Positions 62,583 through 62,622 of a DNA stretch of 64,000 bases are shown here, one piece after another; the stretch's first letter is position 1, and each line of letters opens with the position of its first letter. A program made the position numbers and the translations under genes. The notes below the pieces were generated by a model. It did no database searches. It was given only the letters and a program-made list of their open reading frames with translations, and had not been told where the DNA came from. Source of the DNA: a virus (lineage: Duplodnaviria; Heunggongvirae; Uroviricota; Caudoviricetes); IMG/VR virus record IMGVR_UViG_3300029288_000136. The stretch is one strand, 5' to 3'.

Positions 62583-62622
62583 AAAAAAAAAAAAAAAAAA
62601 AAAAAAAAAAAAAAAAAAAAAA
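62583..62622 (+). repeat. A40 homopolymer in capsid-gene leader
   Basis: 40 consecutive A, 50 nt upstream of the ATG at 62674. Flanked by further A-rich sequence. Confidence 0.8.

Follow-up and report, generated by a model that had tools for sequence, protein, structure and literature searches.

A run of exactly 40 consecutive adenines (A40), with G on both flanks, was read directly at positions 62583–62622 of the plus strand (T40 on the minus strand) in the DNA of a tailed virus (Caudoviricetes; IMG/VR record IMGVR_UViG_3300029288_000136). The whole stretch analyzed, 64,000 nt in length, is hereafter called the window. The run lies in an A-rich spacer between the scaffold/protease-like gene and the gene of the major capsid protein (MCP), and is missing from two other assemblies of the same virus, deposited at ENA and Logan. 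We consider, with moderate confidence, that A40 is a slippage expansion in a lineage-specific, A-rich and structure-free spacer, that the leader as a whole possibly serves as a standby region for ribosomes, and that the 40-nt length is dispensable.

The spacer measures 149 nt (62525–62673, plus strand), was recognized by its composition (A 82%, C 7%, G 7%, T 5%), and has been found in this lineage only. TRF resolves it into ~2.7 copies of a repeat with a period of 46–48 nt. The second-longest A run in the 64-kb window measures 11 nt, and the homopolymer maximum across 813 kb of related loci is 12. The number of A40 runs expected is 3e-10 when calculated from the composition of the late region, and ~1e-3 when calculated from that of the spacer itself; a tract of this length is well outside what chance would give. 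It is intergenic, and the indel that removes most of it touches no ORF. Between A40 and the ATG of the MCP gene (62674) lie 51 nt of mixed sequence (62623–62673), which include a run of 11 A (A11; 62659–62669, plus strand) at −15 to −5 from the start codon, the same in all three assemblies. The sole SD candidate upstream of the start is AGGT at −18 to −15, a spacing that is not usable. Most of the description given in the original prediction is therefore correct for this assembled sequence: the forty consecutive A are there, the A-rich leader announced as ~150 nt measures 149, and no usable SD is present. The tract is also located where it had been placed upstream of the capsid ATG, at a measured distance of 51 rather than 50 nt.

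The gene that follows the spacer (62674–63876, plus strand) encodes a protein of 400 aa, which is identified as an N4-gp56-like, HK97-type MCP by remote homology and by the position of the gene after those of the portal and the scaffold. Homology and gene position agree in this, as in the original prediction, which had set the tract before the major capsid gene. The product matches the PHROG 544 major head protein (1.6e-10) and TIGR04387 capsid_maj_N4 (4.8e-12, 45.8 bits, below the curated cut-off of 60), and its homologues match Phage_capsid_2/3/4. In an alignment with 17 homologues (n = 18), M1 is invariant. The preceding gene (61373–62524, plus strand) is scaffold- or head-maturation-protease-like, as suggested by a weak match to PHROG 3270. 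The order TerL (55205–56749), portal (57475–58893), ligase-like/HTH, scaffold, MCP is common to relatives. The capsid protein is recorded in four sources; the NCBI entry, MFA5132878.1, derives from an 84,939-bp contig in a MAG that carries the label Candidatus Paceibacterota.

The window was compared with an ENA MEGAHIT contig over 64 kb, and with a Logan contig over 2.9 kb. Pairwise alignment of the former (ERZ27247363 k141_3129407; 84,899 bp) with the window revealed five differences in 64 kb, corresponding to three SNPs, one copy of a 13-bp repeat (56770–56782) and a 47-nt indel in the A tract. The Logan contig (SRR8542065_100892, run SRR8542065) agrees with the window over the 2.9 kb compared, but carries a run of 10 A (A10) in place of A40. 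At the tract site both contigs read CAATAAAC-A10-GATAAGAAT, where the window reads A9-GAGAAAAG-A40. The short form is 47 nt less, and reduces the spacer from 149 to 102 nt. As aligned, the indel is A9-GAGAAAAG-A30 (62566–62612, plus strand); both its ends fall within A runs of at least 9 nt, and its 47 nt equal one period of the 46–48-nt TRF repeat. The length of the tract varies between near-identical genomes, and only two states, A40 and A10, have been seen. The remaining A8–A11 runs of the spacer are identical across all three assemblies.

A second repeat polymorphism between assemblies involves the 13-bp unit ACACAATCAACTG, which is tandemly arranged (56770–56814, plus strand; alignments and TRF) in the 725-nt spacer separating TerL from the portal gene, and is present in 3.5 copies in the window and 2.5 copies in the ENA contig. 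The start of the Logan contig, calculated from contig coordinates, corresponds to about position 56785 of the window and lies inside this array. This start would be compatible with a small-k assembler that is interrupted by repeats yet passes through the short allele.

All three SNPs that separate the window from the ENA contig reside in a 68-aa gene on the minus strand (23788–23994), which features an internal AEYQKV repeat. All are nonsynonymous (N13K, E33K, L37W), and no record of the window's allele of this gene was found in a look-up. Two other 68-aa genes (23206–23412 and 24502–24708) have their length and a near-identical AGGAGGGAATGAACG leader in common with it; the three protein sequences are not visibly alike.

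One slipped-strand deletion leads from the long to the short allele, while several steps are needed for the reverse. The long allele is thus probably ancestral, and its loss was probably recent and tolerated. The short allele could also be a PCR or assembly deletion rather than a variant occurring in vivo, and if it were artefactual the dispensability of the extra 47 nt would lose its support. The opposite case, in which the long tract is an artefact of library preparation or assembly and A10 is the true form, seems unlikely to us. Long homopolymers are error-prone in sequencing as in assembly, and two of the three readable assemblies have A10 and lack A40; but the GAGAAAAG block joins the unique left flank, the 40 A join GATAAGAAT at the right flank, and a de Bruijn assembler needs read k-mers. 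Polymerase stutter, moreover, cannot make GAGAAAAG. Three nonsynonymous SNPs and a different VNTR copy number mark the window as coming from a different sample or strain, which could plausibly carry another allele. The junctions argue that the long allele was present in real molecules, and is not an invention of the assembler. The original prediction had specified that a much shorter tract in raw reads would denote an artefact; the finding of A10 in two assemblies goes half of the way towards that outcome. As a practical lesson, long homopolymers in metagenomic viral contigs may vary between assemblies of one and the same population, and read-level checks are needed.

The nearest homologues of the MCP are only 56%, 50% and 45% identical to it. 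In their contigs the MCP gene starts 3–6 nt past the scaffold gene, the 3' end of which contains GGGGTG or GGTGA, and an SD-like motif (GGTG/GGAGG) is often found before the MCP gene in relatives. About 65 loci were surveyed in IMG/VR and GTDB. The MCP gene is mostly separated from the gene before it by −20 to +29 nt, and homopolymers >7 nt were found in none of the ~65 loci within the 200 nt upstream of the MCP gene. Comparison with relatives had been proposed as a check in the original prediction, and its result is unfavourable: A40 is absent in all ~65 loci, which feature a tight packing of scaffold and MCP genes instead. Since the C-terminus of the scaffold protein (...GMLEYLKKEIVI) is homologous between the window and relatives, and the gap is tight in the latter, the spacer is a lineage-specific insertion after a conserved stop codon. 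Exact-DNA scans with the 5' end of the capsid gene gave no match in JGI metagenomes, GTDB genomes and IMG/VR, and a single-protein peptide-pattern scan of IMG/VR was similarly negative.

Expansion also affects the three remaining spacers of the head module, which are made of A/C-rich tandem repeats. The TerL-portal spacer (56750–57474) measures 725 nt vs ~40 nt in relatives, and the spacer between the ligase-like and the scaffold genes (61095–61372) 278 nt vs 25–59 nt. In both, the repeats have periods of 9–58 nt, and G accounts for 5–8% of the residues. The coding strand of the head module contains 46–47% A and 15% T. The third codon positions of TerL are A 0.54, C 0.40, G 0.05 and T 0.02, and similar values were obtained for the portal, scaffold and capsid genes; at the four-fold sites of the late genes the figures are A 0.62, C 0.23, G 0.08 and T 0.07. 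In relatives, third codon positions are ordinary. The ligase-like gene (58908–61094), which belongs to the same block, shows a far weaker bias (T3 0.14), and this argues against a purely replication-linked mutation bias. Deamination of the coding strand during transcription was rejected as a cause of the skew, as it predicts an enrichment in T and G, and the opposite is observed. RNA made only of A and C cannot base-pair, and the avoidance of T and G could result from selection for unpairable mRNA, or for NNA/NNC codons. The A/C-only head module, in its third codon positions and in its expanded spacers, is the more unusual feature of the genome, and A40 is its most visible symptom.

From −99 to +51 relative to the AUG of the MCP gene, the predicted MFE is −5.2 kcal/mol with either allele, vs −20 to −31 kcal/mol in relatives. 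In the predicted MFE structure, all of the ~80 nt upstream of the AUG are unpaired. The start contexts of ~100 genes were analyzed genome-wide. A is found at −3 in 83% of them, and at −2 and −1 in 66% each, a Kozak-like context that is due in part to TAA stop codons located 1 nt before the next ATG. SD-like motifs are found in 15–26% of the ~100 genes and are absent in 74–85%, a minority featuring a strong AAGGAGG. Given this scarcity, the missing SD is the rule in this genome and not a peculiarity of the MCP gene. When the leaders of 19 late genes were compared, that of the MCP gene had the highest content of A; in the other 18 late genes, the longest A run within 150 nt upstream measures 3–9 nt.

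These data bear on the proposal, made in the original prediction, that an encoded poly(A) leader acts as an unstructured, SD-independent enhancer of translation. The lack of an SD and the predicted unpaired state of the leader are in keeping with it; both properties attach to the A-rich spacer, not to A40. An enhancer role specific to A40 is not supported: the short allele keeps the A8–A11 runs and folds identically, and 51 nt separate A40 from the AUG. In its strongest form the proposal would have the templated tract act, by its length, on the capsid mRNA, allowing small ribosomal subunits to load without an SD or a full set of factors, as the leaders of poxvirus late mRNAs do. The tract precedes the gene of the most abundant virion protein, in the most A-rich of the late leaders, and the initiation factors of archaea are eukaryote-like, which would count for such an activity if the host is archaeal. 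The lengths of poxvirus leaders, which span 3–51 A, would also accommodate a run of 40 (PMC5595341). Yet we regard this as improbable. Two assemblies of the same virus and every relative do without the tract, which does not abut the AUG; the optimum in poxviruses is 12 A, longer leaders being worse (PMC5595341); and the A runs of the other late genes do not exceed 9 nt.

Scans for sigma-70 promoters and hairpin terminators were negative around the spacer, inspection by eye of 42 upstream regions revealed no promoter motif convincingly common to them, and neither tRNA nor Rfam families were found in the window. A run of 14 T (T14; 63903–63916, plus strand), located 26 nt past the MCP stop codon and not preceded by a GC hairpin, is a putative archaeal-type oligo-T terminator. 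T14 is the sole plus-strand run of at least 5 T in the interval 54850–64000. Runs of at least 6 T past the MCP stop codon were found in 44 of 56 distinct relatives, usually within 5–25 nt, vs 6.5% of random windows. Archaeal RNA polymerase terminates at runs of 5–6 T (PMC2253867), and the efficacy of termination increases with the strength of the U-tract (PMC8716108). The run, expanded to T14 in this virus, resembles terminators of the archaeal type and would mark the end of the head transcription unit; the scan for hairpin terminators called none at this site. From TerL to the MCP stop codon there is no run of at least 5 T; as this holds for the junction of the scaffold and capsid genes too, A40 most likely lies in the interior of a polycistronic late message, rather than in a 5' leader. 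A TATA-like sequence, AATAAATA, is found at 62638–62645, 16 nt downstream of A40 and ~30 nt before the ATG. It would suit as a candidate TATA box, ~27 nt before a near-leaderless start, for a promoter within the spacer, in which case A40 would be located upstream of the transcript; TATA-like matches are trivial in a sequence made of A for 82%.

The tract may also be viewed from the opposite strand, or as DNA. T40 on the minus strand could be a very strong oligo-T terminator of antisense transcription that enters from the capsid gene, or the rigid poly(dA:dT) duplex could exclude histones, or function as a UP-like element, upstream of a promoter. Termination in archaea at 5–6 T (PMC2253867), the increase of its efficacy with U-tract strength (PMC8716108), the use in this family of hairpin-less T runs past the MCP gene, and the location of AATAAATA would all be compatible with such roles. 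We hold them to be unlikely: the A8–A11 runs of the short allele would already terminate antisense transcription, the TATA-like match is of a kind found at no cost in A-rich DNA and the sigma-70 scan was negative, and the tract is dispensable in the other assemblies and absent from relatives.

A contingency locus, in which the alternation of 102- and 149-nt spacers tunes the capsid:scaffold ratio or the stability of the capsid mRNA, has been considered too. The length polymorphism between near-identical genomes is real, and the genes on either side of it are two for which stoichiometry is important when heads are assembled. The indel, however, affects neither an ORF nor any promoter spacer that was identified, and leaves predicted folding unchanged; the other polymorphic repeat, that of 13 bp, looks equally neutral. 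Only two states have been seen, and to switch on and off a gene as essential as that of the capsid would be lethal. On balance such tuning has a low probability. Of the phase-variation tract envisaged in the original prediction, what survives is the instability in length, A40 vs A10, and not the switching, which is unlikely for a gene of this kind.

Three further candidates were rejected. Slippage of ribosomes or of the polymerase on the A run could not fuse scaffold and capsid, because every frame of the spacer contains stop codons. A poly-A artefact derived from adapters or read-through is contradicted by the lack of adapter sequence and by flanks that on either side continue into this genome. 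The poly(A) tail of a retro-element was dismissed, as no such element is present.

The preferred explanation, a slippage expansion in an A-rich spacer, may be outlined as follows. The ancestral layout would have been that seen in relatives, with the MCP gene 3–6 nt past the scaffold gene, behind an SD-like GGTG/GGAGG. A long, almost all-A spacer would have replaced it, matching the avoidance of T and G in the head module, and replication slippage would have expanded one of the several A runs of this spacer to A40. The spacer would be transcribed inside the late polycistronic mRNA that ends at T14 and, being unpairable, may provide ribosomes with single-stranded RNA on which to land or stand by, ahead of an AUG with A at −3. 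Such a standby role, if real, would belong to the whole A-rich leader and to its A8–A11 runs, and the extra 47 nt that include A40 would be dispensable, hypervariable and VNTR-like. Because published effects of leaders saturate at 16–18 nt, or at ~12 A, a length of 40 is not needed. By these yardsticks the A8–A11 runs found in every assembly would suffice, and A40 would add nothing measurable.

A bolder reading joins the tract and the composition of the head module in one deliberate device of an archaeal virus, in which a templated poly(A) or A-only leader, and late mRNAs almost entirely cleared of U and G, would render the capsid message unfoldable, and let archaeal small subunits, with their eukaryote-like initiation factors, load without an SD and slide to the AUG. 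That such a device exists here strikes us as very unlikely, and we give equally little credence to its corollary, a counterpart in viruses of prokaryotes of the poxvirus poly(A) leader, with a tract length evolving fast by slippage. Should the tract prove important, viruses of prokaryotes would have in it their first described case of a templated poly(A) leader, and a way into the study of SD-independent initiation in archaea would be opened. What the evidence indicates instead is a fast-evolving, dispensable simple-sequence expansion.

The host is probably an archaeon, as judged from the relatives of the MCP, and the assignment of the contig to Paceibacterota probably reflects faulty binning. 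In GTDB, relatives of the MCP were found in 14 contigs, 11 of which are labelled archaeal (Methanosarcinales, Nanoarchaeia, Woesearchaeota, Iainarchaeum, Thermococci, unclassified archaea). The sole match to the MCP among GenBank viruses is an Altiarchaeum virus, at 25% identity. RecU- and YopX-like genes, as well as bacterial-type flotillin matches, are uninformative on the host; the homology search with flotillin yielded only generic bacterial matches, 33–37% identical. Taken together, the DNA probably belongs to an uncultivated, complete-looking tailed virus of ~85 kb, archaeal and mis-binned. The flotillin gene is part of a cassette with NfeD and GGACT genes (35392–37788, minus strand), and a 94% identical flotillin copy resides on an unrelated 8-kb Logan contig, beside a family-B DNA polymerase. 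Between the divergent early (minus strand) and late (plus strand) blocks lies ~1.1 kb of non-coding DNA (53852–54945), in which GC is up to 0.48, both skews change sign, and 16–23-bp tandem repeats are found at 54776–54835; this region is a candidate origin or control region.

Several known systems may be compared with the tract. The poly(A) leaders of poxviruses are found on all late mRNAs and abut the AUG; they are non-templated, being made by polymerase slippage at a TAAAT-type initiator, and ~12 A are optimal (PMC5595341, PMC12722222). Like these leaders, A40 is an A-only stretch before a late, structural gene of a DNA virus, unstructured, variable in length and proposed as an aid to translation. 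Unlike them, it is encoded in the DNA, is located 51 nt from the AUG, concerns one gene only, and is absent in other assemblies. The resemblance is only superficial, as the three defining features that were tested fail.

Standby and SD-independent leaders are closer to the A-rich spacer as a whole. The (CAA)n omega leader of TMV exemplifies the unstructured, SD-independent type. In other systems, unstructured CA or AU 5' tails raise initiation, with saturation at 16–18 nt (PMC5934652), and in Bacteroidetes, where A-rich, Kozak-like contexts are used, A at −3 aids SD-less initiation (PMC6847099). The MCP leader has two features of standby sites, an upstream region that is predicted to be single-stranded and no SD at a functional spacing, and shares with these leaders a G-poor, A/C-rich composition and the preference for A at −3. 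It differs in that the systems described are bacterial or eukaryotic, while the host is here probably archaeal.

Phase-variable contingency loci vary in length, as A40 does; their location in an ORF or in a promoter spacer was not observed here (sigma-70 scan). Archaeal oligo-T terminators (PMC2253867, PMC8716108) resemble T14, which is hairpin-less and corresponds to runs of at least 6 T kept in relatives. On the minus strand, T40 is of this form as well; the likeness concerns T14, not A40 on the sense strand. The poly(C) tracts in the 5' UTR of cardioviruses and aphthoviruses are templated, drift in length between isolates, and are conserved across the genus. A40 is likewise a templated homopolymer, variable in length, in a viral leader. 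Those tracts belong, however, to eukaryotic RNA viruses, while the tract described here is poly(A), resides in a DNA virus and is not conserved.

The closest match is with the polymorphism of simple sequence repeats, homopolymers or VNTRs, by slipped-strand mispairing. As in these, the homopolymer is non-coding, the ends of the indel lie in A runs that provide microhomology, and a second repeat is polymorphic in the same genome. The tract departs from them in its size, 40 nt being far above what is usual (maximum 12 in 813 kb of related loci), and in the lack of a phase-variable gene. As to its kind, A40 thus belongs with the simple-sequence-repeat polymorphisms, and among viruses of prokaryotes its length is unusually great.
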